Source: a candidate division WWE3 bacterium
GTDB lineage: Bacteria; Patescibacteriota; WWE3; UBA101185; UBA10185
Length of the DNA: 62,279 nt
Assembly (NCBI GenBank): GCA_012798315.1
Contig: JAAZNL010000004.1
Span: forward strand, 1-62,279
Direction: 5' to 3'
Both the position numbers and the translations under genes were made by a program. The notes below the pieces were generated by a model, which was not told where the DNA came from, did no database searches, and was given only the letters and a program-made list of their open reading frames with translations. Positions 18,315-62,279 of the stretch are shown here, in pieces (within the stretch, counting starts at the first letter, position 1; every line of letters begins with the position of its first letter).

Positions 18315-18342
18315 AGCCTAATTTTACCTCATAAACCGAATC

Positions 18343-18351
18343 TGAGATAAT
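18343..18351 (+). promoter_or_regulatory. extended -10 promoter element TGaGATAAT, 6 nt upstream of ATG 18358
   Basis: The sequence TGAGATAAT is followed by AAGCGC and then ATG, with no Shine-Dalgarno sequence between them. Confidence 0.4.
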
Positions 18352-18357
18352 AAGCGC

Positions 18358-19494
18358 ATGAAAACAATTGGAATAGATGGTCGTTTTTATGGGGAAGCCG
18401 GTCCGGGACGCTACGTAAAGAATATTGTAACTTTTCTGGAGAAAGTTGATAAAGATAATAAATATATAGTTTTTTTAAGGCCAAAAGGAATAGAAGAATA
18501 TAAACCATCAAATCCGAACTTTACCAAACAGATAGCCGATTACAAATGGTATTCGTGGGGTGAGCAAATCGGATTTCTGGTCAGACTTTTGTCAAACAAG
18601 CTGGATTTATTTTATGTTCCCCATTTCAACTTTCCGGTTTTGTATCCAGGTAAACTCGTAACCGCAATACCCGATTTAATAATGCATACATACAGCACTG
18701 AAAAAGGCACGACCTTGCCTAAACCATATTTTAGATTTAAAAAATTTGTCTATAAATTAGTAGTGCATTTAGCAGTTAAGCGTTCGTTTAAAGTCATAGT
18801 TCCTTCTTTTGATGTTCTTAATGATTTTCTAAAAGTGTTTCCTCAATATACGAGAAATAAATATATCGTTGCCGTCGAAGGAGTTGATCCGGCATTCCTT
18901 AATCAGGAATATTCAGAAGAAGGTATAAATACAAAAGTTGAGGGAAATTATCTTTTATATGTCAGCAGCATGTACGAACACAAAAACGTACCACGCCTTG
19001 TAAGAGCCTTTAAAATACTTCGTGATAAATACAAATTGGATCTCAAGCTAGTGTTAGCGGGCAAAAAAGATAAGTATTCGCTGGCGGTTGAAGATTTGGT
19101 GAATTCACTTGGTTTACAGGATTATGTCCTTATACCAGGTAACAAAGCTCCGGTGAGTGATAATGAGTCTAAATATTACCGTAAACACGCCTTATTGTAC
19201 GTTTTTCCATCATTAAAAGAGGGTTTTAGTTTAACACCTATGGAGGCTCAAAGCTTCGGTTTGCCATGTATAATTTCGGATATTCCTGTGCACAGAGAAA
19301 TATATAAAGACACGGTGTCTTATTTTGATCCCGGGAACGAAGAAGATATAGCAGCAAAGATCGCCGCACTTTTAGCAAATCAACAGTTGCAAAAAGAATT
19401 AATAGAAAAAGGTTTAAATCATTACAAAAAATTTGATTGGATTAAAACTGCTGAAATAACTAAAAGTGTCTTTGATGACGCTCTAAAAAATTAG
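18358..19494 (+). CDS. glycosyltransferase family 4
   Basis: Carries the block VFPSLKEGFSLTPMEAQSFGLPCIISDIPVHREI. Confidence 0.85.
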   Translation: MKTIGIDGRFYGEAGPGRYVKNIVTFLEKVDKDNKYIVFLRPKGIEEYKPSNPNFTKQIADYKWYSWGEQIGFLVRLLSNKLDLFYVPHFNFPVLYPGKLVTAIPDLIMHTYSTEKGTTLPKPYFRFKKFVYKLVVHLAVKRSFKVIVPSFDVLNDFLKVFPQYTRNKYIVAVEGVDPAFLNQEYSEEGINTKVEGNYLLYVSSMYEHKNVPRLVRAFKILRDKYKLDLKLVLAGKKDKYSLAVEDLVNSLGLQDYVLIPGNKAPVSDNESKYYRKHALLYVFPSLKEGFSLTPMEAQSFGLPCIISDIPVHREIYKDTVSYFDPGNEEDIAAKIAALLANQQLQKELIEKGLNHYKKFDWIKTAEITKSVFDDALKN

Positions 19495-20624
19495 TTTATT
19501 TTGTGAATATAATCTATTAATTTTTTTGCGGAGTCGAACCATGTGTATCCTTGTGCGTAAACTGCACCCTTTTCTGTCATAGACTCCGTACTTTCTTCTA
19601 CCAGTTTTATAATTGCTTCCGACATTCCTTTTGTATCCGTTGGATTAGCGTAAAATACGCTATCTTTCCCAAGTTGTTTATGCGGCGGAATTGAAGAAAC
19701 GGCACAGGGTATTTTAGATGTCATCGCCTCTAATAAAGTTAGGCTGAAGCCTTCTTCAAACGAAAAATTTACAAAACCTTTTGCACTCGCAAAAAGAAGT
19801 GGTAAATTTTCCTGAGGAATCCATCCTAAATATATAACGGATTCGCTTAAGTTTTCTTTTTTGATGCTTTCAAAAATATCTTCATAATTCCATCCCTTCT
19901 TTCCAACTAAAACCAAATTAATTTCTTCCACTTTTTTACTGTTTTTCCGGGCTAAACTAAAAGCCCTTATTAATCCGACCACGTTTTTTCTCGGTTGTAG
20001 AGTTGATACAAAAAGCAGGTAATTGTTTTTTATACCGTATGTATCTTTAATCTTTTGTTTTTGTTGAATATCGTAGTTTTTGCGAAAATCGTCTGAAACA
20101 CCTTCGTGTATCACACGTATATTATTGGAACTTGAAACCAACCCGGCATTTAATATTTGTTCTTTAGTGTATTCGGAAGGAACTACTATCAGTCTAGCTG
20201 TATTACACGCATATTTTAGCAAATTCCATTGAAGTAAAAACCTGAAACTTATTTTGGAAAACTGTTTGTTGGATTTAATTTCTAATCCATGAACCATAAT
20301 TACAACTTTAGTATTTTTAGGATATATAACCGGTACGGTATGTTCCGGACTAAAATAAAACTCAGGAGAATCTTTAAATAATTGTCGGCTTAAGCCATTA
20401 TGTGTCCAGGACAGGCTACTTTGTATTTGTGTAAATTTAACATACGGAAAATCGGTATGAAGTTTATCCAGTAAAGAATCTTTTTTTAAATCCCGATAAT
20501 AAAGCAAAAAATCCTGATCTTTAAAATCTTTAAATAATGTTCTGTACAAATTATAAGTAAAATATTCAGGACCTGCCGGCTCTAAAGATTCAAGTATTTT
20601 ACCGTTTAGTGCTATAGCCATCAT
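19491..20624 (-). CDS. glycosyltransferase family 4
   Basis: Carries the block NFSFEEGFSLTLLEAMTSKIPCAVSSIPPHKQ. Two adjacent ATG codons lie at the start. Confidence 0.85.
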   Translation of the reverse strand: MMAIALNGKILESLEPAGPEYFTYNLYRTLFKDFKDQDFLLYYRDLKKDSLLDKLHTDFPYVKFTQIQSSLSWTHNGLSRQLFKDSPEFYFSPEHTVPVIYPKNTKVVIMVHGLEIKSNKQFSKISFRFLLQWNLLKYACNTARLIVVPSEYTKEQILNAGLVSSSNNIRVIHEGVSDDFRKNYDIQQKQKIKDTYGIKNNYLLFVSTLQPRKNVVGLIRAFSLARKNSKKVEEINLVLVGKKGWNYEDIFESIKKENLSESVIYLGWIPQENLPLLFASAKGFVNFSFEEGFSLTLLEAMTSKIPCAVSSIPPHKQLGKDSVFYANPTDTKGMSEAIIKLVEESTESMTEKGAVYAQGYTWFDSAKKLIDYIHKIN

Positions 20625-20660
20625 AGTGATTATACCTTGTGCTATAGTATTTCCATAACT

Positions 20661-25152: not shown

Positions 25153-25216
25153 AACCTGATTTCCTCAAACAAGCAGATTGTTCCCTCGAATCAGGGCTTT
25201 GTTGTATACTGAGCCT

Positions 25217-26572
25217 ATGAGTTCAACAGATTTACAGAAAATAGTAGGATTAAGCAAACGACGTGGGTTTGTTTTTCCTGGATCCGATATATATGGCGGA
25301 TTAGCCAATACTTACGATTTTGGCCCTTTGGGGGTGTTATTAAAGAAAAATATCTCAGACCTATGGTGGAAAACCTTTGTAACCAAACGCAGTGATATGT
25401 ATGGGCTTGATACCAGCAATTTAATGAGTCCGAAAGTATGGGAAGCATCGGGACATACCGCAAATTTTACTAACGTATTAATCGATTGTTTAAATTGTAA
25501 GTACAGAACCCGTGCCGATCATTTAATAGAAGACGCACTTCCGGGTTACGAAAACGTAGAAGGCCGCCCACTTTCTGAACTGGATGAAATTATAAAGTCA
25601 AATAATATTAAATGTCCAAAGTGTGGACTTTCAAAATGGACGCCATCCCGTAATTTTAATCAACTTTTCGAGACATCTGTCGGGATAATAACTGAGGGAA
25701 CAGATACGGCATTTCTCAGAGGAGAGTTAGCTCAGGGCATGTTCGTAAATTTTAAGAATGTTCTCGACAGTATGCACCCAAAACTGCCTTTTGGTATAGC
25801 GCAATCCGGTAAGGCTTACCGTAATGAGATTACGATGGGAAAATTTACATTTAGAACTTTGGAGTTTGATTTAGCGGAATTTGAATATTTTGTAGACCCT
25901 AAATATTGGGAAGTTCATTTTGAATATTGGAAAGAGGAAATGATGAAATTTGCTTTAGCAGTAGGTCTGAATGCAACTGATTTACGCTGGAGAGCACATT
26001 CTAAAGAGGAATTAGCCCACTATTCTAAACGCACTGAGGACTTAGAATATCGATTTCCATGGGGATATAAAGAAATGTGGGGTCTGGCGTACCGAACTGA
26101 TTTTGATCTGAAAAATCATATGGAAAAATCAGGTGTGGATATGAATTATGTAGACCCGTTTACCAATGACAAGTTTATTCCGCATGTAATTGAGCCCACA
26201 TTTGGCATTTCGCGGCTATTTACCATCCTTTTAATGAACGCCTACACCGAAGAGCAGGATAGGGTAGTATTAAAGCTTCCAAAGAATATAGCCCCTTATA
26301 GAGCGGCTGTTTTTCCGCTTGTAAAAAACAAAGAAGATATTGTTAATAAAGCGCGAGATATATTTGAAACGTTGGTTACTGCAGGAATATCTACTGCATG
26401 GGATGACCGCGGCAACATCGGGAAAAGGTACTATTCACAAGATGAAATAGGAACTCCTTCTTGCGTAACAATTGATTACCAAACTTTGGAAGATAATACC
26501 GTAACCGTTAGAGATAGAGATACTACAAAACAGGATAGAATACGTTTGGAAGATCTGATAAGCCGTTTATAA
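25217..26572 (+). CDS. glyQS: glycine--tRNA ligase (dimeric GlyQS type)
   Basis: The N-terminus LSKRRGFVFPGSDIYGGLANTYDFGPLGVLLKKNI and the class II core and anticodon-binding blocks match GlyQS. I placed the start at ATG 25217 rather than the TTG at 25178. Confidence 0.92.
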   Translation: MSSTDLQKIVGLSKRRGFVFPGSDIYGGLANTYDFGPLGVLLKKNISDLWWKTFVTKRSDMYGLDTSNLMSPKVWEASGHTANFTNVLIDCLNCKYRTRADHLIEDALPGYENVEGRPLSELDEIIKSNNIKCPKCGLSKWTPSRNFNQLFETSVGIITEGTDTAFLRGELAQGMFVNFKNVLDSMHPKLPFGIAQSGKAYRNEITMGKFTFRTLEFDLAEFEYFVDPKYWEVHFEYWKEEMMKFALAVGLNATDLRWRAHSKEELAHYSKRTEDLEYRFPWGYKEMWGLAYRTDFDLKNHMEKSGVDMNYVDPFTNDKFIPHVIEPTFGISRLFTILLMNAYTEEQDRVVLKLPKNIAPYRAAVFPLVKNKEDIVNKARDIFETLVTAGISTAWDDRGNIGKRYYSQDEIGTPSCVTIDYQTLEDNTVTVRDRDTTKQDRIRLEDLISRL

Positions 26573-27041
26573 AACATGTACATCTTTTTGCACAAAAAGA
26601 ACGCGCCCAAGAGAATTTATTTTAGTTTACTTCTCTCAGGCGCTTTTTCCCGAACCAACCCTTTCTTAACCGGCCGCGATGTGTATCAATTGTGACTCAT
26701 ATAAAAATACGTGCGTCCTTGTGATAAATGCGACGCTTCAGCGCTTGAGTCCTTAATCCGGATGAAATCTCTGGGGTGATATTTAATCCCCAAAGTCACC
26801 GCAATCCGCTGGATAGTCTCAGCGCTTTGCACAATTCCCTCGTTGTTAACCGATGACTCTCTCCATACGAACGAAATACTGATGGGGCGAACACGGTTTT
26901 GTAAGGGAGAAGACGGAAATAACTTTGGTAACATGCTACCCTCCCATTGGAATGAAGAATTCGAACCTATGGTAGAAATGTAGGTTGTATAGCAGGTTTG
27001 CCTTTCATTATAACACTTTCGGGTATTGTTTGTATTGACAG

Positions 27042-27088
27042 TGGATTCCATATGGTGGATATTGGATATAGTTTGGTGATCAATGGTG
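27042..27088 (+). promoter_or_regulatory. array of five phased direct repeats TGG(A/T)(T/G); candidate MraZ operator
   Basis: The repeats are TGGAT 27042, TGGTG 27053, TGGAT 27063, TGGTG 27074 and TGGTG 27084, with spacings of 11, 10, 11 and 10 bp. The array ends about 27 nt upstream of the mraZ ATG. Confidence 0.45.
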
Positions 27089-27114
27089 AAAACCAAAAAA
27101 TGAAGGATTAAAAA

Positions 27115-27528
27115 ATGCGAATGTTTCTTGGGGAATATCAACCGAATATCACTGAAGGTTCTCGTATTGCCCTGCCCAAGAAACTTCGGGATCAAATACA
27201 TGGAGATGAAATAATACTCTCCCGTGGGTTTGAAAGGTGCATTTTTTTATACGATAAGGAAGATTGGGTTAACGAAGCTAAAAAACAGGTTGAAAGCCCA
27301 ATCAGCGATTTGAAAACAAGGGATCTTAAGAGGTACATGTTCGCAAGCGCTTCCGAATCGGCTATAGACGCACAAGGGAGAATAGTGTTGCCGACGCCGC
27401 TAAAAATGTATGCGGCAATTGATAAGAGAACGTGTGTAGTCGGCGCAGGGGATCATATAGAAATTTGGGATGCGGACGCATGGTCAGCACATTTAGAAAA
27501 AATTTCTGCCCAACTCGCCGCGGAATAA
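27115..27528 (+). CDS. mraZ: transcriptional regulator MraZ
   Basis: It begins (MR)MFLGEYQPNITEGSRIALPKKLR and has a second SpoVT/AbrB-like repeat (DAQGRIVLPTPL). It sits immediately upstream of rsmH. An alternative start at ATG 27121 would give the canonical MFxG N-terminus. Confidence 0.9.
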   Translation: MRMFLGEYQPNITEGSRIALPKKLRDQIHGDEIILSRGFERCIFLYDKEDWVNEAKKQVESPISDLKTRDLKRYMFASASESAIDAQGRIVLPTPLKMYAAIDKRTCVVGAGDHIEIWDADAWSAHLEKISAQLAAE

Positions 27529-30596: not shown

Positions 30597-30645
30597 ATAG
30601 ATATTTCCCCCCTTTATTCTTACTGAATACTAATAAAATCGAAGT

Positions 30646-30996
30646 GTGTTTTCCCGGGAAATAGGAAATATAGGCGAAAATATTGCGATAGCCTACTTAA
30701 AAACGAAAAAATTCTATATTCTGGCGAAAAATGTATACGTTAGGTGGGGAGAAATTGACATAATAGCCATAAAAAACCGTAAAATTTACTTTTTTGAGGT
30801 TAAATACTCCCGAACCGGAATACCTGCCGTTGATATGTATTCCAAATCCAAGAGACGTAAAGTTATAAGATCTGTGTATTTATGGCTAGATTTATACAGC
30901 AAAATGAAAAATTATTCACCGAAGCTTGGACTTATAGCAATTCAGCGCCTGTCAGATGGTCTTGATATAAAAGTATATATAGAGGCTCTGTATTAA
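30646..30996 (+). CDS. YraN family (UPF0102) endonuclease-like protein
   Basis: GNIGENIAIAYLKTKKFYILAKNVYVRWGEIDIIA...FFEVKYS matches the YraN pattern. It uses a GTG start. Confidence 0.8.
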   Translation: MFSREIGNIGENIAIAYLKTKKFYILAKNVYVRWGEIDIIAIKNRKIYFFEVKYSRTGIPAVDMYSKSKRRKVIRSVYLWLDLYSKMKNYSPKLGLIAIQRLSDGLDIKVYIEALY

Positions 30997-31009: not shown

Positions 31010-31018
31010 TGTTAATAT
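31010..31018 (+). promoter_or_regulatory. extended -10 promoter element TGtTAATAT, 6 nt upstream of ATG 31025
   Basis: The sequence TGTTAATAT is followed by ACCAAT and then ATG, with no Shine-Dalgarno sequence. Confidence 0.4.
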
Positions 31019-31024
31019 ACCAAT

Positions 31025-31426
31025 ATGAGTAAAAAGATTTTATTTATAGAAGATGACGAAGGTTTCTTTAATTTGTTTTCTGCGGCTTTAAGTATGAAAG
31101 GCTATACCATTGTGCATGTCGCTGATGGTTCTGAGGCTGTAGAAAAGGTTAAATCAGAAAAACCTGATCTGGTTCTTTTAGATATAATTTTGCCTGGAAT
31201 GAGCGGCTTGGACATATTAAAAGAGCTTAAGGAGACTGAAGAAACCAAAGCCATTAAGATAGTTATGCTTACAAATTTTGGCACCGATGAAAATGTAAAT
31301 CGGGCTATGGAATTAGGTTCTGATGATTACCTAATGAAATACAATGTAGTTCCTTCGGAATTACCCAACAAAATAGCCGCTTTACTAGGTGAAACCGCTG
31401 ATTCCGGTGTAAAATTTGTTAGTTAA
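31025..31426 (+). CDS. response regulator, receiver (REC) domain only
   Basis: 133 aa with the acidic pocket IEDDEG, a phospho-acceptor context LVLLDIILPGMSG, and LTNF and K residues. There is no output domain. Confidence 0.88.
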   Translation: MSKKILFIEDDEGFFNLFSAALSMKGYTIVHVADGSEAVEKVKSEKPDLVLLDIILPGMSGLDILKELKETEETKAIKIVMLTNFGTDENVNRAMELGSDDYLMKYNVVPSELPNKIAALLGETADSGVKFVS

Positions 31427-33707: not shown

Positions 33708-33716
33708 TGTTATACT
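33708..33716 (+). promoter_or_regulatory. extended -10 promoter element TGtTATACT, 6 nt upstream of ATG 33723
   Basis: The sequence TGTTATACT is followed by CGAAAT and then ATG. Confidence 0.4.
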
Positions 33717-33722
33717 CGAAAT

Positions 33723-37218: not shown

Positions 37219-37914
37219 TCAAAAATCGTTCACTATGTATGCCGCATAGTCCTGAGCTAGCGGGGTTTCAATTGTTGCTGTTTCTTCATCTGATAATTTT
37301 TCAAAATATCTTCTGAATCCGCGGATTGAATTTCCGTGGCAGGATACAGCCACATTCACATTGTATTTTTTCATCAACGGCAAAACAGTGTCGCAGAAAT
37401 CAGAGACCCGCATGCAGACCATTTTTAGGCTTTCACCGTTTGGAGGCACATAGTCGAACGAACGTCTTACTTTTTGCGCCATTTCAGGATCTTCCAGTTG
37501 TAATTCCAACTTGCTTTTACCGACATAGTCACCGTAGTTGCGTTCCATAATTCTTTTGTCAGTAGTAATATCCAATTCTTTAGCGTTATCGTTTAAAGAC
37601 ATGGCAATTTTCATTGTGTCTACAGCCCTTATCAAAGGTGATGAAAACAGCATTTTTATTTTTTTATTTTTCAGTTTTTCGGCAAGTATTTTCGCTTGTT
37701 CGCGTCCTTTTTCTGTCAATGGTGAGTCATGCCAGCCGCTAAACACGAAATTTGCGTTGTCTTCAGTTTGACCATGCCTAAAAACATAAAGTGTGGGATA
37801 AACATCAGACTCCATTTTGGGGAGTTCGACAGCATCTTTATAACTTAAAAAAGCAACAGCCTGATCTATTTCACCGGATGAATATTTTGCATAAAGGTTT
37901 TGGTCTATCTTCAT
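37219..37914 (-). CDS. histidine phosphatase family protein, GpmA-like (2,3-bisphosphoglycerate-dependent phosphoglycerate mutase-like)
   Basis: Motifs LYVFRHGQTEDN, SGWHDSPLTEKGREQA and SCHGNSIRGF resemble the dPGM signatures. The start is ambiguous between GTG 37932, ATG 37914 (chosen) and ATG 37815. The 37815 start would give a canonical-length protein beginning MESDVYPTLYVFRHG. Confidence 0.65.
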   Translation of the reverse strand: MKIDQNLYAKYSSGEIDQAVAFLSYKDAVELPKMESDVYPTLYVFRHGQTEDNANFVFSGWHDSPLTEKGREQAKILAEKLKNKKIKMLFSSPLIRAVDTMKIAMSLNDNAKELDITTDKRIMERNYGDYVGKSKLELQLEDPEMAQKVRRSFDYVPPNGESLKMVCMRVSDFCDTVLPLMKKYNVNVAVSCHGNSIRGFRRYFEKLSDEETATIETPLAQDYAAYIVNDF

Positions 37915-37924
37915 GTGTAATAAG

Positions 37925-37943
37925 AATATCACACTGTGATATT
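37925..37943. promoter_or_regulatory. perfect 9+1+9 inverted repeat AATATCACA-C-TGTGATATT in a divergent promoter region
   Basis: The repeat is centred at 37934, exactly 20 nt from ATG 37914 (minus strand) and 20 nt from ATG 37954 (plus strand). Each arm reads TGTGATATT toward its gene, which looks like an extended -10 element. Confidence 0.5.
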
Positions 37944-37953
37944 ATTCATTAAT

Positions 37954-39808: not shown

Positions 39809-39889
39809 TGTTAGTTCCTTTATATTAAATAATTTCGTGTTTCCTTTGGTAAATAGTATCGAATAATACCCGAAAATGTCAAGCTTTTG

Positions 39890-39898
39890 TGCTACAAT
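39890..39898 (+). promoter_or_regulatory. extended -10 promoter element TGcTACAAT, 8 nt upstream of uvrB ATG 39907
   Basis: The sequence TGCTACAAT is followed by AATCCGGT and then ATG, with no Shine-Dalgarno sequence. Confidence 0.4.
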
Positions 39899-39906
39899 AA
39901 TCCGGT

Positions 39907-44287: not shown

Positions 44288-44331
44288 CATAAATCTATAC
44301 AAACCCGAAGAAAAGCCGTACAATACTTGTT

Positions 44332-47319
44332 GTGAAAAACCCCGTAGATCAAATTATTGTCAAAGGTGCCCGTCAGCATAATCTAAAAAATGTTGATATG
44401 GAAATCCCAAAAAATAAAATGGTTGTGTTCACCGGAGTATCTGGTTCGGGTAAATCCTCGTTGGCTATGGACACAATTTATGCTGAAGGCCAAAGACGCT
44501 ATGTGGAGAGTTTATCCGCATACGCAAGACAATTCTTAGGGATAATGGATAAACCCGATGTTGATAAAATTGAAGGTTTATCTCCGGCCATAGCAATCGA
44601 TCAAAAAACGACCTCGAAAAATCCCAGATCGACAGTCGGGACAATTACAGAGGTTTACGATTATATTAGACTTTTGTACGCGCGAGTGGGGCATCCTCAT
44701 TGTCCGCAATGCGGCCGGGAGATACAACGTCAAAGCACCGACGAAATAGTAACCGGAACTTTAAGGTTAGTTGCAGAAAATCCATTATATAAAAGTGAAA
44801 AAGGAGTACGTTTTGTAGTTTTTACACCGATAATCAAAGATCGAAAAGGCGAATATTCAACTCTCTTTGAAAATCTTCGTAAGCAGGGCATATTGCGGGC
44901 AAGAGTTGACGGTGAAATGAAAAATCTTAAAGATGATTTTGATTTAATAAAAACAAATAAACACACAATTGATGGTTTAGTATCCAGACATATTGTTAAC
45001 CACAAAAAACTTCAAAATGAAGAAGAAATAAGCAATTTAAAATCCTCGTTGTTTCAATCTCTTGAAACCGGCTTACGTATGGGTAACGGAAATGTGATAG
45101 TTTCAATTGTAAAAGATAATTCATTCGATTTTCCGGAAAATCCCAAAGAGTATGAAGATCATCTATTTTCGGAAAATTTTGCATGCCCTGTATGTAATAT
45201 ATCTCTACCCGATATGGAACCCCGCACCTTTTCGTTTAACTCCCCTCACGGAGCTTGTCCAAAATGCGACGGTTTGGGCACACAATTAGAAGTAGATCCG
45301 TCATTGGTACTTAACCCAAGACTATCAGTAGATGAGGGTGGAGTTCTACCGTGGGCACGTTTATTTGATCATTACAGTTGGACTCAAAAGGTAGTAGAGG
45401 CTGTTTCAAAGTATTATCAAATAAATTTAAGTACGCCAATAGCAAGCTTACCTAAAGAACACCTGGATATTATTTTATACGGTGTAAAAGATAAAAGATT
45501 TAAGGTTACATATACAACTCAGGATAAACGTGAGCATACTTATGATGCAAATTTTGAAGGTGTGATACCAAACCTTCAACGACGCCACAAAGAAACAGAA
45601 TCGGATTATATCCGGGGAGAAATCGAGAGGTTTATGGTTTTGGAGACATGTCCTGTGTGCAACGGCTCCCGTTTAAAACCTGAAACTCTATCCGTAACTG
45701 TAGACAAACTGAACATTCATGAGTTAACAGAGATGTCGATTTTAGATACGCAAAATTGGGTAACCAATCTAAAAAATGTTTTTACTTTGCGTGAATCACA
45801 GATTGCCGAGATTATTATTAAAGAAATTAATTATAGATTACAGTTTTTAATAGATGTCGGCTTGTCTTACTTAACTCTTAGCCGATCTTCTTCCCATCTG
45901 TCAGGAGGAGAAGCGCAACGAATAAGATTAGCCTCTCAGATAGGTTCTGGCTTGTCCGGAGTGTTGTATGTTTTAGACGAACCGTCCATAGGACTTCATC
46001 AGAGAGATCAGGGTAAATTAATTAAGACCCTTCACCATTTACGCGATCTTGGCAACACTGTGTTGGTTGTTGAACATGATGCCGAGACTATGTTGGAATC
46101 AGATTATATTTTTGATTTCGGCCCTGGAGCAGGAGAACATGGCGGAACAATAATCGCGGAAGGTACTCCGGCAGAAATAATTAATAATCCAAAATCATTA
46201 ACTGGACAATATCTATCCAGAAAGTTAATTGTCGGTCAAAATTACAAAATCACAAAACCCGATTTGGATTACCTATTAGAAAAAGATGCGCGCATAAAAA
46301 CTAAAAAAGATATTGAAGGAAAATCTATTACGCTATATGGGGCGAATGGCCGCAATTTAAAAAATGTTAATTTTGAAATTCCTATGGGCAAGTTTGTATG
46401 TGTCACGGGTGTTTCAGGATCGGGTAAATCAACTCTTGTAATGGATACGCTTTACGTAGCATTACGCCAGCTTTTTGGCTTAAAAATCGAAGAAAAACCC
46501 GAGCCGTTTAAAGATTTAAAAGGATATGAGCAAATTTCAAATGTAATCGCAATTGATCAAACTCCGATCGGGCGTACACCTAAATCAAATCCTGCAACGT
46601 ATACTAAAGCTTTTGATCATATAAGAGATTTGTATTCAAAAACGCAGGAATCCAGAGTAAGAGGTTACCAATCAGGAAGATTTAGTTTTAATGTTAAAGG
46701 TGGCCGATGTGAAGCGTGCGGAGGAGAAGGTCAAATAAAAATAGAAATGCAGTTTATGCCTGACGTTTATGTGAACTGTGAGGTTTGTCAGGGAAAAAGA
46801 TACAACAGGGAAGCATTGGAAATTTATTACAAAGGAAAAAATATTGCGGATGTTCTTGATATGACAGTAGAAGAATCAGTCCGTTTTTTTGAAAACGTAC
46901 CCCAAATTAGAAATAAATTTGAAATATTAAATGAAGTCGGATTGGGGTATATCAGATTGGGTCAACCGGCCCCCACTTTATCCGGCGGCGAAGCGCAACG
47001 TGTAAAGCTGGCTCTGGAACTATCTAAACGATCTACAGGAAGCACTTTTTATATTCTGGATGAACCTACAACAGGTTTGCATTTTGCCGATCTCGAAAAT
47101 TTAATAGCCATAATAAAACGTTTGACCGCCCGGGGAAATACGGTATTGGTGATAGAACATAATCTTGATGTTATTGCCAATTCTGATTGGGTAATCGATT
47201 TAGGACCGGAAGGCGGAGAAGAAGGAGGCAAAATTTTATTTAGCGGCACTGTGCAGCAGATGATCAACGAAGGCATCAGTTATACCGCGCAAGCTTTACG
47301 CGCGCATCTCGGGCTTTAG
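44332..47319 (+). CDS. uvrA: excinuclease ABC subunit A
   Basis: It has two ABC modules (GVSGSGKSSL twice, LSGGEAQR twice) and zinc-finger Cys clusters. It uses a GTG start. Confidence 0.95.
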   Translation: MKNPVDQIIVKGARQHNLKNVDMEIPKNKMVVFTGVSGSGKSSLAMDTIYAEGQRRYVESLSAYARQFLGIMDKPDVDKIEGLSPAIAIDQKTTSKNPRSTVGTITEVYDYIRLLYARVGHPHCPQCGREIQRQSTDEIVTGTLRLVAENPLYKSEKGVRFVVFTPIIKDRKGEYSTLFENLRKQGILRARVDGEMKNLKDDFDLIKTNKHTIDGLVSRHIVNHKKLQNEEEISNLKSSLFQSLETGLRMGNGNVIVSIVKDNSFDFPENPKEYEDHLFSENFACPVCNISLPDMEPRTFSFNSPHGACPKCDGLGTQLEVDPSLVLNPRLSVDEGGVLPWARLFDHYSWTQKVVEAVSKYYQINLSTPIASLPKEHLDIILYGVKDKRFKVTYTTQDKREHTYDANFEGVIPNLQRRHKETESDYIRGEIERFMVLETCPVCNGSRLKPETLSVTVDKLNIHELTEMSILDTQNWVTNLKNVFTLRESQIAEIIIKEINYRLQFLIDVGLSYLTLSRSSSHLSGGEAQRIRLASQIGSGLSGVLYVLDEPSIGLHQRDQGKLIKTLHHLRDLGNTVLVVEHDAETMLESDYIFDFGPGAGEHGGTIIAEGTPAEIINNPKSLTGQYLSRKLIVGQNYKITKPDLDYLLEKDARIKTKKDIEGKSITLYGANGRNLKNVNFEIPMGKFVCVTGVSGSGKSTLVMDTLYVALRQLFGLKIEEKPEPFKDLKGYEQISNVIAIDQTPIGRTPKSNPATYTKAFDHIRDLYSKTQESRVRGYQSGRFSFNVKGGRCEACGGEGQIKIEMQFMPDVYVNCEVCQGKRYNREALEIYYKGKNIADVLDMTVEESVRFFENVPQIRNKFEILNEVGLGYIRLGQPAPTLSGGEAQRVKLALELSKRSTGSTFYILDEPTTGLHFADLENLIAIIKRLTARGNTVLVIEHNLDVIANSDWVIDLGPEGGEEGGKILFSGTVQQMINEGISYTAQALRAHLGL

Positions 47320-49031
47320 TTAATCGGGTATTCTTTAAGTTGGGCGCTAAAATCGGAAAGTTGTATGGTTTTTGATTGTTGCGGCAAATATATTGTATTT
47401 GTGTCATTAGGGGCTATAGCCTTGCCGTTCTTTAAATATATAAAAACATCTCCTGTGTTCTTAATAGAGTATTTGGTTTGTTTTTTTATCCATGCAATAG
47501 GATTAAACGATAATTTCCTTTCCATTTCGAACTCAGGACTAAATTCGACCAACGAGGTGGTTTCAGGAAACTCTACTTCTACAAGTTTTTTATCTTGATC
47601 GTATCTGTATTCACCCGCAGACATCGGATACTCCGAATCAGTTCCTCTGATAACAAATACAAAATGGTTTGTGTCCAATTTTGTAAAGTAATCTATTCCA
47701 GATGTACTTCCCCATGTTGGATCTATTTGAACCCAGCCGAAAGCAGGATCGTAAAATTCAGGCCAGGCATGCAGACGATCTCCACCGTTTAGAATAACAG
47801 ATAAAGGTTTGTTTTCTTCATCTTTTGTTAATGCGTACCCGTTTAGTTGTCTTGCTGGTATGCCCATGGCTCTCGCCACGGTTATAAACAAATCTGTAAA
47901 TTCCATACAACCCCAGCTGTTTTTATCTAATAATGCTTTTTCAGCCCCCTTTCTATCAAGGCCCTTTTTTTCCTGAATACTAAAGTCGTAATGGTAATTT
48001 TCGAGAATATAGTCATATATTTTGAGTGCATTTTGGGCGACCGTTAGATTTTCGTCTTTCAGGTTTGTCACGAGCGATTTTATTGATTCTGAGTTAATAT
48101 CCCAATATTTGCTTTCCTGTGTATATATTTTTAATTTAGATGGAATGTCTCTAAAAATTCCGCCGTTAGAAGGTTCAATTTGTCTGCCGGAAATTCTGGC
48201 ATTACCGATTAGTTCTACTTCCATTTTAGCTTTACTTTTTAATTCATAGGTTGCCACAGTGTTGCCCTGATCATCCACTTTAATTTTTTTGGGCTCCGGT
48301 TTTATTGAAATATACTTGATTTGTTGCAGGCCTTGTATTTCAGGGGGAAACGCAACTTCGTACGAAGACTTAAAAAAATTATCGTTTTGCAGTTGGTAGA
48401 GTAATCTGAAATTAATTTGTTGGTATGTACCATACGAGGCTGTTATACCGTTTTTAACTATTTTTTCTTTTCCGAAAAATAAAACTGTATTTTTACCTTG
48501 TTTCTCTTCTTTATCCGGCAATGGAGATATATACAGCTTCGGGCCTAAATCTTCAGGAACAATCAGAGTTGTGTTGTAATCATCTTTTTCTGATTTTTCG
48601 CCTATACGGGGAATATTAATGTTCCATATATTTCCGATTTTCGTTGCAGTTTTTTTTGACGTATAGCTGATTTTTAAATCGTTCTTTTTATCTTGGCCTA
48701 TCACAAAGTCACCAAAACGCGCGGTAAGTTTAGTAATACCATCTTCATTTGTTTTCGCGACTTCTACTTTACGTCCTTTACTTTTTCCTGACACATCTGA
48801 AACGTCTTCCTTAAGTTCAATGCTGTAGCTGGATACTATTAAATCGCTTTTTAAATTTGTGATAGTAATATCATGTTCCACGTTTGTGGTACCGTCGCTT
48901 TGTATGGTATACGTAACGTTAGAATTCGTTTGAAATTTATCAAAAGCATCTTCCTGGCCAAATACAGGCAAAGGCAAAACAACTGTCAATAACAGAGTTA
49001 GCAAAAATACATAACCGTAAATCTTTTTCAT
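47316..49031 (-). CDS. secreted transglutaminase-like domain protein
   Basis: It has a signal peptide (MKKIYGYVFLLTLLLTVVLPLPVFGQ). A C-terminal transglutaminase core carries the Cys (WGCMEFTDLF), His (HAWPEFY) and Asp (WVQIDPTW) residues. Confidence 0.8.
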   Translation of the reverse strand: MKKIYGYVFLLTLLLTVVLPLPVFGQEDAFDKFQTNSNVTYTIQSDGTTNVEHDITITNLKSDLIVSSYSIELKEDVSDVSGKSKGRKVEVAKTNEDGITKLTARFGDFVIGQDKKNDLKISYTSKKTATKIGNIWNINIPRIGEKSEKDDYNTTLIVPEDLGPKLYISPLPDKEEKQGKNTVLFFGKEKIVKNGITASYGTYQQINFRLLYQLQNDNFFKSSYEVAFPPEIQGLQQIKYISIKPEPKKIKVDDQGNTVATYELKSKAKMEVELIGNARISGRQIEPSNGGIFRDIPSKLKIYTQESKYWDINSESIKSLVTNLKDENLTVAQNALKIYDYILENYHYDFSIQEKKGLDRKGAEKALLDKNSWGCMEFTDLFITVARAMGIPARQLNGYALTKDEENKPLSVILNGGDRLHAWPEFYDPAFGWVQIDPTWGSTSGIDYFTKLDTNHFVFVIRGTDSEYPMSAGEYRYDQDKKLVEVEFPETTSLVEFSPEFEMERKLSFNPIAWIKKQTKYSIKNTGDVFIYLKNGKAIAPNDTNTIYLPQQSKTIQLSDFSAQLKEYPIN

Positions 49032-49074
49032 GCATCTATTTTACAGGATTCTGCTTTTGACGATAATTAAGCAT

Positions 49075-50421
49075 ATGACCGTTAAGGAAAAAGTTAGGGC
49101 ATTACCTTTGGAACCCGGTGTCTACTTATTTAAAGATATAAAGGGAACCGTGATCTATGTGGGTAAGGCAAAACAATTAAAGAACAGGGTATCGTCGTAC
49201 TTTCAATCTGGTATTTTGCCCGGTACCAAAACATATGCTCTCGTCAGCAGAATAGCTGATATGGAACATATTCAAGTAGAGAGTGAGTTGGAGGCGTTAA
49301 TTCTTGAATCTGATTTAATAAAAAAATACAGACCTCATTACAACATTATCCAAAAAGACGACAGAACGTATTTATATATAGTTATCCGACCGGTTCACAT
49401 AACTACTTCCGGAGGTGAAGCTACCATTTGGTCGGTATTTACCGCCAGAGAAACGGATTTAAAAGCCCGGGATGTTATTTATGGTCCTTATCCTGACGGA
49501 GGCACCGCAAAAGAAATTCTACGAAAACTACGACCTATATTTCAATTTAAAGACTGCAGTGAAACAAAATTTAGCAGATTTAAAAAAATGGGCAGACCGT
49601 GTCTATACGGTCATTTAAATTTGTGTACAGCCCCGTGTATATACAATGAACCCAAAGATATTGCCATCTATACCAAAAATATAAAAAACTTAAAAGCGGT
49701 ACTTTCCGGAAAAAGTAAAAATTTATTAAACCAATTTAAAAAAGGAATGGACAAAGCTTCTAAGGCACAACGATATGAAGACGCAATATATTACCGTGAC
49801 ATGATGGAAAAATACAAGTATGTGAGCAGCAAGTTTAGATCGTCAGAAAAATATATACTAAATCCTTATCTAATCGATGATTTAGCCGAAAAAGCTCTTA
49901 AAAACATTACTTTAATGATTCCAATACTTAAATCAGTTCCTAAACGTATTGAGTGCTACGACATTTCAAATGTTTCCGGTAAAGAAGCAGTCGGCTCAAT
50001 GGTTGTAGCTGTTGACGGAAAAGTAAATAAGCGCGAATACAAACGTTTTAAAATTAAACGCAAAGACAGTCCGAATGATTTTTTTATGATGCAGGAAGTT
50101 TTGGAACGCCGTTTACTTCACTCTATTCCTGACACAAAAAAAGTGCCATGGCCAGTGCCCGATTTGCTGGTAATAGACGGGGGAAAAGGACAGGTTAGCG
50201 CTGTCTTAAAAGTTGTTAAAAATCTTAATTTAGATATTCCGGTTGTTGGATTAGCAAAACGTTTTGAGAGTTTAGTGTATAAAACACAAGAGAGCTATGT
50301 TATAGCATCGTTTCCTAAAGACACAGAAGGAATGAAGCTGATTATAAGATTAAGAGATGAAGCGCACCGATTCGCGCAGGCTTACCATCATATGCTTAGG
50401 GCAAAAAAGTTTATAGACTAG
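49075..50421 (+). CDS. uvrC: excinuclease ABC subunit C, short form lacking the C-terminal (HhH)2 domain
   Basis: It has a GIY-YIG domain (GVYLFKD...VIYVGKAKQLKNRVSSYF), a UVR domain (ASKAQRYEDAIYYRDMMEKY) and an RNase H-like endonuclease domain (ECYDISN...LVIDGGKGQ...GLAKR...RDEAHRFA). The ORF stops about 15 aa after that last block. Confidence 0.88.
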   Translation: MTVKEKVRALPLEPGVYLFKDIKGTVIYVGKAKQLKNRVSSYFQSGILPGTKTYALVSRIADMEHIQVESELEALILESDLIKKYRPHYNIIQKDDRTYLYIVIRPVHITTSGGEATIWSVFTARETDLKARDVIYGPYPDGGTAKEILRKLRPIFQFKDCSETKFSRFKKMGRPCLYGHLNLCTAPCIYNEPKDIAIYTKNIKNLKAVLSGKSKNLLNQFKKGMDKASKAQRYEDAIYYRDMMEKYKYVSSKFRSSEKYILNPYLIDDLAEKALKNITLMIPILKSVPKRIECYDISNVSGKEAVGSMVVAVDGKVNKREYKRFKIKRKDSPNDFFMMQEVLERRLLHSIPDTKKVPWPVPDLLVIDGGKGQVSAVLKVVKNLNLDIPVVGLAKRFESLVYKTQESYVIASFPKDTEGMKLIIRLRDEAHRFAQAYHHMLRAKKFID

Positions 50422-54711: not shown

Positions 54712-54734
54712 GCCGGATATACTATACTAGTTGT

Positions 54735-55841
54735 ATGAAACTAGTAATTACAGGAGGGCATCATTCTTCCGCTTTACCGGTAATAGCTTTGATTAAAAAA
54801 GAGCACCCCGATTGGGAGTTGTACTGGTTTGGACACAGGCATTCTCTCAAAAACGACAAAAACGATTCTTTAGAATACAGAGAGATTAGTTCACTAAATA
54901 TTCCTTTTTTCGATTTACATACCGGCAAGGTTTATAAGGTATATAACCCTTTTAAGGTATTAAAAGTCTTTGGTGGGCTGATTCAAGCTTATAATATTTT
55001 GCGGGTTATAAAGCCCGATTTGATACTTTCATTCGGCGGTTATTTGGCGGTACCGGTAGTTTTATCGGGGAATTTGCTTGGAATTAAATCTATCACGCAT
55101 GAACAGACACTTGTTGCGGGTTACGCAAATAAAGTAATAGCTAAGTTTGCCGCTAAAATATTATTATCCTGGGACAGCTCCAAAATATATTTTCCCCAGA
55201 ATAAAGTTGTTGTGACAGGCTTGCCCCTTAGAGAGACTATATTTAATGTAAAATCCAACAGCTTTACCGCGGACAATGCGCTCCCTTATATTTTTGTTAT
55301 GGGAGGAAAAAGCGGATCACACTTGCTTAACGTTGTATTTAAAGAAGCCTTGCCGGAATTGCTCAAAAAATATAATGTAATACACCAATGTGGAGATTAT
55401 TCGGTTTACAATGATTACGAGAAATTAGTTAAATATTATTCAGGTATTAAATCTTCGGTGTCCGGAAAATATTTTGTTCAAAAATTTATTCTCGAGAATG
55501 AAATCGGGGAGGCTTACAACAAGGCAAATATTATTGTTTCCAGGTCGGGCGCGCATACCATTGCGGAAATTTTGGCTTTAAAAAAACGGGCCCTACTTAT
55601 TCCTATACCCTGGGTTTCTCACAATGAACAGTATATAAATGCAGATTACGTAAAAAACCTAGGTCTCGCGGATATATTGCTGGAAAAAGATCTTGATGTT
55701 GAGAATCTAATAAATAAAATCGATTTGGTACTAAAAAAGAATGACAGCCAAGTTTCAGATTTATACGGTGATCTGAGCCGAGAAGCTGCCGAAAAAATAT
55801 TAAATGAAATTATCCTCGCCCATAAAGAGAAAAAAGCTTGA
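54735..55841 (+). CDS. murG: undecaprenyldiphospho-muramoylpentapeptide beta-N-acetylglucosaminyltransferase
   Basis: Motifs ITGGHHSSALPV, FGGYLAVPVVL, SRSGAHTIAEILALKKRALLIPIP and HNEQYINA match MurG. A TATACT hexamer (54723-54728) lies 6 nt upstream of the ATG. Confidence 0.88.
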   Translation: MKLVITGGHHSSALPVIALIKKEHPDWELYWFGHRHSLKNDKNDSLEYREISSLNIPFFDLHTGKVYKVYNPFKVLKVFGGLIQAYNILRVIKPDLILSFGGYLAVPVVLSGNLLGIKSITHEQTLVAGYANKVIAKFAAKILLSWDSSKIYFPQNKVVVTGLPLRETIFNVKSNSFTADNALPYIFVMGGKSGSHLLNVVFKEALPELLKKYNVIHQCGDYSVYNDYEKLVKYYSGIKSSVSGKYFVQKFILENEIGEAYNKANIIVSRSGAHTIAEILALKKRALLIPIPWVSHNEQYINADYVKNLGLADILLEKDLDVENLINKIDLVLKKNDSQVSDLYGDLSREAAEKILNEIILAHKEKKA

Positions 55842-59081: not shown

Positions 59082-59248
59082 GTTGAAATATCAATAAAAG
59101 CTTTTGTCGGATTACAGATTATCTATTTGTCGTCCATTTTCTTTTGTGATTTTATTTAATAACAACGTAATAAATTAATTTAATTTATCACGGGCCGACA
59201 TCCTTTATGCAGTGAAAGGGTGCCGACTCATGAATAAATGGTCTGCCT

Positions 59249-61681
59249 ATGTATTCAGAGCAGTCGGGTTCTAGCACCCAGATAACGAAGCTTGTAAAAA
59301 ATACAGATATCAAATTTTCAGATAATGCCCGCGTAATCTTAGAAAAGCGATATTTACTTAAAGATTCCACAGGTAAAACGGCTGAAACTCCCGAGCAAAT
59401 GTTTGACCGTATAGCGAATGTAGTTGCTGAACCTGACAGACCCTATCGGGATGTAGAAGTTACTAAAATCGAATTTTTTAATTTATTATCTACTAAAAAG
59501 TTTTTTCCGAATTCACCTACTTTTACGGGTGCAGGGACTCCTCTAGGTCAATTAGCTGCGTGTTTTGTATTGCCTATTTCAGACGATTTAGGCAGGGAGC
59601 GTTCCAGTATTTTTGAAACGCTTAGGGTTGCCGCTTTAATTCAACAAACCGGTGGTGGAAACGGATTTTCTTTTTCTTCCTTACGACCTAAAGGTACTCT
59701 TGTAGCAAAAAGCCGAGGTAAAGCCACAGGTCCTGTAGGTTTTCTGCAGGTTTACGATGCTGCATTTGGAGAAGTAGCTCAAGGTGGCGTTCGAAGAGGA
59801 GCAAACATGGGAGTTTTGAGTGTTGAACATCCTGATATTAGAGACTTTATCAAATGTAAATCGCAGGAAGGCAAGGTAGCCAATTTTAATATCTCAGTTG
59901 CGATCACTGACAAATTTATGGAGGCTGTTAAAAAAGACGAAACTTACGATTTAATTGATCCCCACTCAGGTCAGGTAGTTGAATCACCGCGGGCACGCGA
60001 AATATTTAATATGATAGTTGACTATGCGTACAAAAACGGCGAGCCCGGAGTACTTTTTATTGACGCAGCTAATAGGTCCAATCCGGTACCGCATTTGTAC
60101 ACATTAGAGGCAACTAATCCTTGTGGCGAGCAATGGCTTGGCCCTTACGAAAACTGCTGTTTGGGTTCTATTAATCTTGGTCAACACGTAGATGTAAATG
60201 GTCTGCTGGACTGGGAAGCCTTGAAAGAAAGCACAATTTTATCTACCAGATTTTTAGATAACGTAGTTACAGCTAATCGATATGTACCCGAAGTTCCGGA
60301 ACTACGGGAATCTGCCGAGAACCCCCGCAGAATCGGCCTTGGGATTATGGGTTTAGCCGACCTTATGTACTCAATGAATATAAGGTACGGGAGTCCTATG
60401 GGACAGGAATTTGCCGCACAGGTTATGGAATTTATCCGATTTTACTCGATGAAGACTTCAATTGAGTTAGCTAAGGAAAGAGGGCCTTTTCTGAAAATTA
60501 AAAACAGCATTTACGATCCTGAAAACCTAAAATGGACGCCCCCGCAGCCGTTAAAACAATTTAAACACGACTTTGGAAGACCGTTAATAAACTGGGATGA
60601 GATAGTTTTAGGTATTAAAACTTATGGAATTAGAAATGCAGCACAAACTACGGTAGCTCCAACTGGAACTATTTCAACGGTGGCGGGCATAGAGGGTTAC
60701 GGTTGCGAGCCAGTGTTTGCTTTAGCTTATACCAGAAATGTTTATCAGGCGGCAGGAGATGAAAATAAACTTACATTAACTTACGTAAGCCCTTTGTTCC
60801 AGCAAGCTATTGATTCACTAGATTTAGATCCGGATGCAAAACGAAATATTATCGACGAGGTGGTAAGAAGTGGTTCATGCCAGGGAATAGCGGAATTACC
60901 TCAGTATATAAAAGATGTTTTTGTTGTTTCAGCCGATATAACGCCGGAAGAACATATACACATGCAAACATCAATTCAGGCATTTGTAGATAATTCTATT
61001 TCAAAAACCTGTAACTTTCCTGAAACTGCAACCAAAGAAGATGTGGCAAAAGTCTACCAAATGGGGTGGGAACTCGGTGCTAAGGGACTGACTGTTTATG
61101 TTGCGGGCAGCCGGTCGGAAGTTGTATTGGAAACCGCAGAGACTAAGAACAAAAAAGAAAGTCCTCAGGCTATGGAAGAGACCTATAAACATGAGCGAGG
61201 TTACAAACTCTCCGGATCCACATATAAACTCCAGACCCCACAGGGAAAAGCCTTTATTACAGTTAATAAAGATGATCAGGAACGTCCGGTAGAGGTGTTC
61301 GTTAATGTGGGTAAAGCCGGAACGGATGTAGCCGCTTTGTCAGAAGCATTGGGGCGTTTGATTTCAGGTTGGTTAACGGTTTCAAGGGATTCCACACGAA
61401 CGGCAAAAGAGATTGTATCCCAACTTGTCGGAATAGGTGGCGCAAAATCCGTTGGATTTGGAAAAAATAGAGTTAGTTCAATACCCGATGCCGTCGCTAA
61501 AGTAATAGCCGAAGATCTTGGTATAGAAGTGAGAACAAACGGTTCAAATCACATTGAAGAAGAGAAAAAGGAGATTACGGTCTTTTCCTACACTGATATG
61601 TGCCCTGAATGTGGCAACTCCACTTTGGTACAAGAAGAGGGTTGTATGAAATGCTACAACTGCGGATATAGCGCATGCTAG
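59249..61681 (+). CDS. nrdJ: adenosylcobalamin-dependent (class II) ribonucleotide reductase
   Basis: Motifs [16 protein letters not shown], the catalytic region [28 protein letters not shown] and a C-terminal Cys cluster (CPECGN...[12 protein letters not shown]) match class II RNR. I saw no intein-like insertion. Confidence 0.92.
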
Positions 61682-61743
61682 ACACGCAGGGTGGTCGATA
61701 ACCACACAACTTCGGGTATTCGGCTTGCTAAATCCAACGTTTT

Positions 61744-61752
61744 TGTTATAAG
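61744..61752 (+). promoter_or_regulatory. extended -10 promoter element TGtTATAAG, 6 nt upstream of ATG 61759
   Basis: The sequence TGTTATAAG is followed by TCTTGT and then ATG. Confidence 0.4.
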
Positions 61753-61758
61753 TCTTGT

Positions 61759-62279
61759 ATGACCGTTTATACAAAAAAAGGGGATACAGGAAAAACGGGT
61801 ACGCTTAAAGGTATAGGATCAAAAACCGATGCTGTATATGCTGTTTTAGGCACATTAGATGAGTTAAATGCCAGTCTGGGCGTGTTACACCAATCCCGTT
61901 CAACGTTATTAAAAAAACAGGTTATAGAAATACAATCCGATTTATTTATGCTGGGTTCGTGGTTAGCCGGAAGTCCTAAAGCGGAGATTTTCGGAAGACA
62001 TTTAGCAAAAAAAGTAGCCGGCTTTGAGAACTATATTGATGAAATGGACGCTCAAAATAAACCCATTAAGAATTTTATTTTACCGGGTGGAAGCTTTGAG
62101 TCGGGCTTTTTGCATATATCCCGCACGGTTTCCCGAAGACTTGAAAGACAGCTGGTTCTTTATTTTGATAAACACAAGCAGAAAGGCTCAGAAGATATAC
62201 TAAAATACGCAAATAGGCTTTCGGATTATTTGTTTGTGTTAGCCCGCTATTACAATAAAAAAGGTAGGGGCGACATACT
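61759..62279 (+). CDS. PduO-type ATP:cob(I)alamin adenosyltransferase (3' end outside window; absent from the supplied ORF track)
   Basis: My manual translation is MTVYTKKGDTGKTGTLKG...AVLGTLDELNASLGVL...IQSDLFMLGSWLA...NFILPGGSFESGFLHISRTVSRRLER...YANRLSDYLFVLARYYN. It matches the PduO/MMAB-type pattern (YT+.GD.G.T, G.vDELN, FILPGG, LH.aRtv.RR.ER, NRLSD.LFvlAR). The frame is open to the window end. Confidence 0.88.
   Translation, partial: MTVYTKKGDTGKTGTLKGIGSKTDAVYAVLGTLDELNASLGVLHQSRSTLLKKQVIEIQSDLFMLGSWLAGSPKAEIFGRHLAKKVAGFENYIDEMDAQNKPIKNFILPGGSFESGFLHISRTVSRRLERQLVLYFDKHKQKGSEDILKYANRLSDYLFVLARYYNKKGRGDI

Follow-up and report, generated by a model that had tools for sequence, protein, structure and literature searches.

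We analyzed a 62,279-nucleotide (nt) stretch of DNA from a candidate division WWE3 bacterium (the whole of contig JAAZNL010000004.1, hereafter the window) and found that a hexamer resembling the bacterial -10 promoter element, TANNNT, recurs at a sharply defined distance, most often exactly 6 nt, upstream of start codons. The hexamer carries promoter hallmarks, sits preferentially before the first genes of transcription units, and is conserved before orthologous genes, in DNA where Shine-Dalgarno (SD) sequences are nearly absent. We consider it likely, from these sequence features, that most transcription units start from extended -10 promoters that abut the start codon, with first genes expressed as leaderless mRNAs, internal genes translated by coupling to the gene before them, and SD sites serving few genes. 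A preliminary description of the window had proposed this arrangement, and the predictions that it makes for the sequence held up: The spacing peaked at exactly 6 nt, a TRTGn extension and a -35 TTG accompanied the hexamer, and the motif was tied to unit heads, depleted at overlapping genes, and kept before the uvrB and glyS orthologues.

The window, which spans an entire 62-kb contig, has a GC content of 36-40% and ~52 densely packed genes, which were named with Pfam and NCBIfam profiles. Judged from its UvrB protein, whose closest relatives (55-74% identity) lie in metagenome-assembled genomes labelled candidate division WWE3, Saccharibacteria, Microgenomates, or "Patescibacteria group," the host is an ultra-small bacterium of the Candidate Phyla Radiation (CPR)/Patescibacteria, nearest to WWE3 (Katanobacteria). 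The window sequence was also present in DNA runs from soil and biofilm metagenomes.

A -10-like hexamer peaks 6 nt upstream of start codons

Start codons were set by a longest-open reading frame (ORF) rule that was blind to the motif, and TANNNT hexamers were counted by the number of bases between hexamer and start codon, with spacings of 14-45 as the background. In the window, the hexamer stood at spacing 6 in 9 of 49 genes, compared to a background of 1.53 per position (Poisson P = 3.2e-5), and spacings 6-8 were occupied in 12 of 49 genes, whereas shuffling the 40 nt before the starts 2000 times gave 4.8 ± 2.1 (P about 0.003). Related loci displayed the same peak, with spacing 6 found in 73 of 376 genes (P = 3e-31). 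Upon pooling the window with 42 close loci (525 kb, 425 genes), we counted 82 genes with spacing 6 against a background of 14.2 per position (P = 5.8e-35), and among the 158 pooled hits, 6 was the commonest spacing (82 hits), followed by 7 (25 hits). The spacing-6 peak also appeared in 12 Patescibacteria loci (23 of 120 genes) and in 80 metagenomic loci retrieved via glyS (18% of 292 genes and 10% of 462 genes). The data from about 90 related loci are thus in line with a pattern that is lineage-wide. Control loci from Bacillaceae with a GC content of 37-38%, on the other hand, had the hexamer at spacing 6 in 2 of 264 genes, and internal in-frame ATGs had it in 1.2% of cases. As for the possibility, raised beforehand, that AT-rich composition produces the pattern, the hexamer spacing was commoner than such composition predicts, both in the window and in the related loci.

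The hexamer carries promoter hallmarks and marks the heads of transcription units

We aligned 113 hits on the hexamer to profile the surrounding bases. Directly upstream, T occurred in 58% of hits at position -5 and in 62% at position -3 relative to the hexamer, and G in 55% at position -2, which corresponds to the TRTGn of an extended -10 element, or "-16 region," while A made up 62-64% at hexamer positions 4 and 5. Exactly 17 bp upstream of the hexamer, we found T/T/G at 50/46/27%, i.e., a weak -35 element, and matches of at least four of six bases to TTGACA were present in 27% of hits versus 14% of controls (Mann-Whitney P = 2e-4). TGn preceded 33% of hits but 5.1% of the remaining TANNNT hexamers of this DNA (P = 4.5e-28). 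Together, these preferences give the consensus T-R-T-G-n-T-A-n-A-A-T, accompanied 17 bp upstream by a -35 TTG that is weak if present. Because TRTGn and a TTG at 17 bp represent contacts between sigma factor and DNA that would be meaningless on an mRNA, these bases identify the hexamer as a promoter element and not as a ribosome site. A T at position -1 of the start codon was common as well, in ~46-55% of genes with and without the motif alike (window and 42 loci), as a general "U-AUG" context. We considered this T as part of a pyrimidine(-1)/purine(+1) signature of transcription start and rejected it, since genes lacking the motif have the T too (46%).

The motif was strongly associated with gene context. 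We defined the head of a transcription unit as a gene with a divergent neighbor or with an upstream gap of at least 16 nt, and counted recO and murA as internal genes. By this definition, 14 of the 24 heads in the window carried the motif at a spacing of 6-8, versus 3 of 25 internal genes (Fisher P = 0.0009). Beyond these 14 heads, five or six had a box at 9-12 nt, and a few (the genes for a histidine kinase and PBP1A) had neither a box nor an SD sequence. In the pooled set, the motif preceded 81% of genes whose same-strand gap measured 16-50 nt, 44% of genes with a divergent start, and 35% of genes with gaps above 50 nt, and its frequency dropped to 9% (6 of 66) at overlapping genes, among which overlaps of -4 or -1 accounted for 3 hits in 37 genes. 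The TGn extension followed a similar order: It was present in 57% of hits in gaps of 16-50 nt, in 47% of those at divergent starts, in 31% of those in gaps above 50 nt, and in 7%, i.e., at background level, of those in gaps of 1-15 nt. Within gaps of 6-10 nt, 12 of 28 genes scored, and there the TAA or TAG stop codon of the upstream gene supplies the "TA" of the hexamer at spacing 6. Since TGn is at background in gaps of 1-15 nt and an upstream stop often provides the "TA," the hits at 7600, at mraY (52402), and at ftsW (53500), all located 1-15 nt past the previous stop, are probably chance matches and not promoters.

Divergent genes were packed closely together, with start-to-start distances mostly between 23 and 72 nt (many at 34-50 nt), compared to a median of ~225 nt in Bacillaceae, and the window contained five divergent pairs with starts 39-43 nt apart. 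Such short distances leave no room for leaders. A fixed module of ~40 nt between divergent starts was also considered: The distances did cluster at 23-72 nt, but the module was rejected, as the hexamer-to-hexamer spacing was not constant.

Shine-Dalgarno usage is at background overall

We called an SD sequence where the duplex with the anti-SD reached -5 kcal/mol or stronger, and a strong one at -7 kcal/mol or stronger. SD duplexes preceded 14% of the genes in the window, compared to 10% at positions inside genes. In the pooled set, the values were 17.9% of genes and 17.1% of random positions, whereas Bacillaceae reached 65%. Genes with the motif were depleted in SD duplexes (3-11%). The sole class with an enrichment consisted of genes that lacked the motif and had gaps above 50 nt, where strong SD sequences occurred at 22% versus a background of 5%. 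This enrichment in a leadered class suggests that SD pairing still functions and is used by few genes. The preliminary description of SD sequences as rare thus agrees with pairing at background overall, but would go too far if read as an abolished mechanism.

We also considered whether the SD mechanism has disappeared along with the anti-SD tail (CCUCC) at the 3' end of 16S ribosomal RNA (rRNA). Neither the window nor the 160 retrieved loci contained an rRNA with a 16S 3' end. Published work reports that the anti-SD motif is less often detected only in a subgroup of Parcubacteria (PMC9297842). The strong SD sites at an ORF starting at 6937, at mraZ, and at lexA argue indirectly against such a loss here.

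The box is conserved before orthologous genes

Before uvrB, a TGnTAnnnT was located 6-9 nt upstream of the start in all 10 of 10 orthologues from WWE3/Patescibacteria, while the sequence of the spacer was not conserved. For the glycyl-tRNA synthetase gene glyS, 23 of 30 orthologues with at least 60% identity had a TANNNT at a spacing of 5-9, of which 13 had a TGn. Among more distant CPR relatives, the glyS box was kept in 15 of 33, and 7 had a plain SD sequence (GGAG/GAGG/AGGA core) instead. Upstream regions of this latter type contained a textbook AGGAGG-type SD and no abutting -10 box, and in one of these seven loci, a TATACT promoter lay ~25 nt upstream of the SD. The occurrence of glyS with a box or with an SD among CPR relatives indicates that leaderless and SD designs are exchanged within the radiation.

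Promoter and start sites along the window

All twelve hexamer/start pairs listed in the preliminary description, as well as the more widely spaced site of nrdJ, were present in the sequence as written, and we add three sites that were absent from that list. A glycosyltransferase gene of the GT4 family (extended -10 TGaGATAAT-6-ATG 18358; 18343..18360, plus strand; identified from sequence and Pfam) and a wzx-type flippase gene (TAAAAT-6-GTG 18314; 18312..18329, minus strand; Pfam Polysacc_synt) form a divergent pair with starts 43 nt apart, and a further GT4 gene has TATAAT-7-ATG 20621 (20619..20637, minus strand; from sequence). On the plus strand, glyS follows ttgTATACT-6-ATG 25217 (25202..25219), the newly added yraN follows TAAAAT-6-GTG 30646 (30631..30648; NCBIfam YraN), a response regulator gene located 28 nt past yraN follows the extended TGtTAATAT-6-ATG 31025 (31010..31027), and ppsA, after a gap of 25 nt, follows the extended TGtTATACT-6-ATG 33723 (33708..33725).

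The two other added sites face each other within 37912..37956. One is TGaTATTCT-8-ATG 37914 on the minus strand, before a gpm-like phosphatase/mutase gene whose public protein also starts at 37914. The other is TGaTATTAT-8-ATG 37954 on the plus strand, before dedA, the start of which is uncertain: No protein in the public collection begins at 37954 or 37936. Between these two genes, the two divergent TGTGATATT extended -10 boxes overlap and together make up a perfect 19-bp palindrome (37925-37943), with 8 nt between either box and its ATG. This palindrome may also serve as an operator.

The excision repair genes all carry a box on the plus strand: uvrB has the extended TGcTACAAT-8-ATG 39907 (39890..39909; from sequence, Pfam, and orthologues), uvrA, after a 44-nt gap, has TACAAT-7-GTG 44332 (44316..44334), and uvrC has GATAAT-7-ATG 49075 (49059..49077). 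The gene of a secreted transglutaminase-like protein has TAAAAT-6-ATG 49031 on the minus strand (49029..49046). Further along the plus strand, murG follows TATACT-6-ATG 54735 after a 23-nt gap within the dcw (cell-division/cell-wall) cluster (54720..54737). Two sites are less clear. The PduO-type adenosyltransferase gene follows TGtTATAAG-6-ATG 61759 (61744..61761, plus strand), a weak case in which the last hexamer base is G in place of the conserved T, and nrdJ follows TGaATAAAT-9-ATG (59231..59251, plus strand), where the hexamer begins with A and the predicted leader of 2-3 nt makes it a near-leaderless candidate.

A conserved ACCCGAA(n3)GTCAA or AAAACCCAAA element lies 8-18 nt ahead of the uvrB and uvrA -10 boxes in the window (39868-39885 and 44302-44309), and the same element preceded the boxes of uvrB orthologues in six other loci. 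The divergent neighbor of uvrB is lexA, and the element is a candidate LexA (SOS) operator of the lineage. AACCCRAA, tried as an SOS box across the window, was rejected because it was not enriched (12 occurrences versus 9.4 expected).

Several start codons next to a box differ from those given by the longest ORF, which lie further upstream: 25178 rather than 25217, 49030 rather than 49075, 7576 rather than 7600, and probably 37932 rather than 37914. For glyS, the true start is the ATG at 25217 and not the TTG at 25178, as orthologue N termini align at residues 1-7 and the public protein agrees. For uvrC, it is the ATG at 49075 and not 49030, as the GIY-YIG domain begins from residue 14, again in agreement with the public protein. 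The public annotation of the contig independently places starts at 25217, 49075, 37914, and 7600.

The three SD sites noted earlier were likewise found and represent exceptions. On the plus strand, mraZ lies behind a canonical TTGACA-17-GATATT promoter, with ~50 nt of leader and, 7 nt before ATG 27115, a GAAGGA SD (27035..27117). The lexA gene on the minus strand is leadered, with an AAGGA SD located 7 nt before ATG 39808 (39806..39825). The 6937 ORF on the plus strand has a GGGAGG SD (-11.5 kcal/mol) before its ATG, which overlaps the previous stop as TAATG (6915..6939). This was one of six stop/start overlaps that we verified as signs of translational coupling: the ATGA at 3884..3887 (plus strand) serves as an example, likewise those at 10616, 11821, and 35984, and a GTGA is located at 28770.

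Other features of the contig

The gene content, as assigned by Pfam and NCBIfam, comprises five groups: a glycan cluster (GT4 enzymes, wzx, and a sugar-phosphate transferase); recO, glyS, mraZ-rsmH-ftsL-ftsI, and yraN; genes of a two-component pair together with PGM, ppsA-eno, the gpm-like gene, and dedA; lexA, uvrB, PBP1A, uvrA, the transglutaminase-like protein, and uvrC; and secG-murA-mraY-ftsW-murG-ftsQ-ftsA-ftsZ, nrdJ, and pduO. Rfam and tRNA scans detected no RNA genes in the window.

At 24397-24511, recO has a conserved N terminus without a canonical start codon: ATG 24511 is the first ATG, GTG, or TTG that follows the in-frame stop. When translated from ATA 24400, which is located 4 nt past the upstream stop, the protein reached a TIGR00613 score of 122 bits instead of 84, and the match began at profile position 3 instead of 36. 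These observations point either to coupled initiation at a non-canonical codon (ATA/ATT) or to an error in the sequence. We also identified a previously unlisted secG of 73 amino acids at 50853-51074 (TIGR00810, 34 bits, above the cut-off), which fills an apparent gap of 226 nt before murA. As the murA ATG is located 1 nt past the secG stop, murA belongs to the internal, coupled genes. Upstream of mraZ, 542 nt (26573-27114) form the longest apparently non-coding stretch of the otherwise gap-free contig. This stretch contains only one doubtful minus-strand ORF of 171 amino acids without a family match, gave nothing in Rfam, and ends with the TTGACA-17-GATATT promoter.

Discussion

Taken at face value, the sequence data outline how initiation would work in this organism. 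A promoter of the housekeeping sigma factor that relies on an extended -10 element would head most transcription units. RNA polymerase starts transcription ~7 nt past the -10 hexamer, so a spacing of 6 would make the start-codon A or G the +1 position. With the hexamer ending 6 nt, less often 7-8 nt, before ATG or GTG, transcripts would start within 0-2 nt of the start-codon purine, and the first genes of most transcription units are thus probably made as mRNAs that have no 5' leader, no SD site, and a 5'-terminal AUG or GUG. Ribosomes, initiator tRNA, and IF2 would bind this 5'-terminal AUG directly. Direct binding of this kind has been shown for leaderless mRNAs of Escherichia coli, mycobacteria, and Deinococcus. 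Downstream genes, which overlap the previous stop or start within ~15 nt past it, would probably be translated by termination-reinitiation, and a minority of leadered genes (mraZ, lexA, and the 6937 ORF) would retain an SD. Both the transcript 5' ends and this mode of ribosome loading are what we infer from the arrangement of boxes, starts, and stops.

A number of observations weigh against this picture. No transcript 5' end was seen: Searches of RNA runs with ftsZ-nrdJ, with ppsA, and with a groundwater relative gave no matching run. A scan of the region for full -35/-10 consensus promoters found no enrichment (47 sites versus 58 expected), such that the case rests on position-specific signals. 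Some of the listed sites have imperfect boxes (GATAAT twice, TATAAG). At several heads (700, 2686, 2727, 20661, 50439, and nrdJ), the box is located 9-12 nt from the start, which predicts leaders of 2-5 nt and hence mRNAs that are not strictly leaderless. The T at position -1, being common in genes without the motif, offers no evidence for a transcription start.

One alternative accepts the boxes as real promoters, but in it transcription mostly begins a few nt upstream, or read-through from upstream units dominates, such that short-leadered or internal positions serve for most translation of these genes and true 5'-AUG initiation is minor. Spacings of 8-12 do exist (8 at uvrB, the gpm-like gene, and dedA; 9 at nrdJ; 10 at 700, 2686, and 2727), and there are few convincing intrinsic terminators (of terminator-like sites, 24 were found versus 15 expected, mostly within genes), which makes read-through plausible. 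Yet the dominant spacings of 6 and then 7 place +1 on the start-codon purine, and TTG starts were depleted among the hits (6% versus 20%), which would fit a requirement for AUG or GUG at the 5' end, even if wrong longest-ORF calls weaken this depletion as evidence. On balance, we regard short leaders or read-through as an improbable account of the data.

The TA-rich box could also act in translation, as a non-SD site for ribosome binding or a "Kozak-like" signal of polycistronic mRNAs with leaders, of the type known from Bacteroidetes (GeneMarkS-2 group B), instead of as a promoter. The background frequency of SD sequences, as in SD-less phyla, would fit this idea, as would the T at -1 that is not confined to motif-bearing genes and the motif hits that lie 3-9 nt past the upstream gene (7600, 52402, and 53500). 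However, a translational signal would be expected before internal genes too, where overlapping genes are depleted in the motif, and the hits in gaps of 1-15 nt lack the TG extension. TRTGn and the TTG at exactly 17 bp, which read as sigma factor-DNA contacts, have no role on an mRNA, and a TAnnnT with near-invariant ends and a sharp peak at 6 nt fits the geometry from -10 to +1. A ribosome signal therefore seems very unlikely to us. Last, an artefact of AT-richness, upstream stop codons, and the choice of an ATG beside a TA-rich hexamer draws on the low GC content of the window and on the stop-derived hits in gaps of 6-10 nt, which show no TG enrichment, but it is largely refuted and has next to no probability, as motif-blind starts, neighboring spacings, shuffles, internal ATGs, and Bacillaceae of equal GC gave 1-4% against 18-19%, the box is conserved in orthologues, and the TG and -35 features co-occur.

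The elements of this leaderless design resemble those of systems known elsewhere. In Gram-positive bacteria, TRTG promoters with an extended -10 ("-16 region") were reportedly described by Voskuil and Chambliss in 1998. As in those promoters, T-R-T-G-n stands directly upstream of TAnAAT and the -35 is partly dispensable, but while the "-16 region" promoters of Bacillus are normally followed by leaders with a strong SD, here the element is set against the start codon. Genomes rich in leaderless genes have been classified as GeneMarkS-2 group C (Lomsadze et al. 2018, PMC6028130) or as having TA-led genes (Zheng et al. 2011, PMC3160421), and include Mycobacterium, Streptomyces, and Corynebacterium, with 25-50% of operons being leaderless (PMC6028130, PMC3160421). 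The window shares with them a Pribnow-type -10 box located 6-8 nt before first-in-operon starts and not before internal genes. It differs in that the remaining genes of group C genomes use a clear SD, whereas here SD pairing does not rise above background overall and shows enrichment only in a small set of leadered genes, in that the genome is AT-rich, tiny, and extremely compact, and in that its promoters rely on the TRTGn extended -10 with a very weak -35. The CPR/WWE3 lineage was outside these surveys. In Deinococcus-Thermus, a "-10 region adjacent to ORFs" is the rule (PMC12340547; see also de Groot et al. 2014, cited in PMC6028130). That phylum-wide habit of a -10 abutting the ORF and of leaderless mRNA expression is similar to what we observe, with the differences that 5' ends in Deinococcus have been mapped and tested experimentally while ours are predicted, and that Deinococcus is GC-rich and keeps an SD on leadered genes. 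The very low use of SD is akin to that of Bacteroidetes/FCB (GeneMarkS-2 group B). In that group, the motif stands before every gene, those inside operons included, and cannot function as a promoter, whereas ours is confined to unit heads and has promoter hallmarks. Our literature searches found no description of a leaderless architecture in CPR/Patescibacteria, an absence that is no proof. We thus seem to be dealing with a known mechanism in a lineage where it is apparently undescribed and which is unusually SD-poor.

We lean slightly toward a broader conclusion, that leaderless initiation from -35-poor TRTGnTAnAAT promoters is the default across WWE3/Katanobacteria and many other CPR lineages, with SD sequences for a small regulated minority and termination-reinitiation for internal genes. 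The findings would have practical consequences. Gene finders that expect an SD may misplace starts in CPR genomes in the way seen here with the longest-ORF starts, and genetic tools for the few cultivable Patescibacteria could build on a promoter grammar of TRTGnTAnAAT, 6 nt, and ATG, with no ribosome-binding site. For the genome itself, promoters that fit within gaps of 16-50 nt, together with divergent starts mostly 23-72 nt apart, would mean that almost no non-coding DNA is needed. To Actinobacteria and Deinococcus-Thermus, the leaderless-rich bacteria known so far, a third and very large radiation would be added, which bears on the question whether leaderless initiation is ancestral or was repeatedly regained in streamlined genomes. 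If the pattern holds for CPR broadly, the switching of glyS between leaderless and SD designs would be a natural experiment on the exchange of initiation modes, and leaderless initiation would be the default design of a group that makes up a large share of bacterial diversity.

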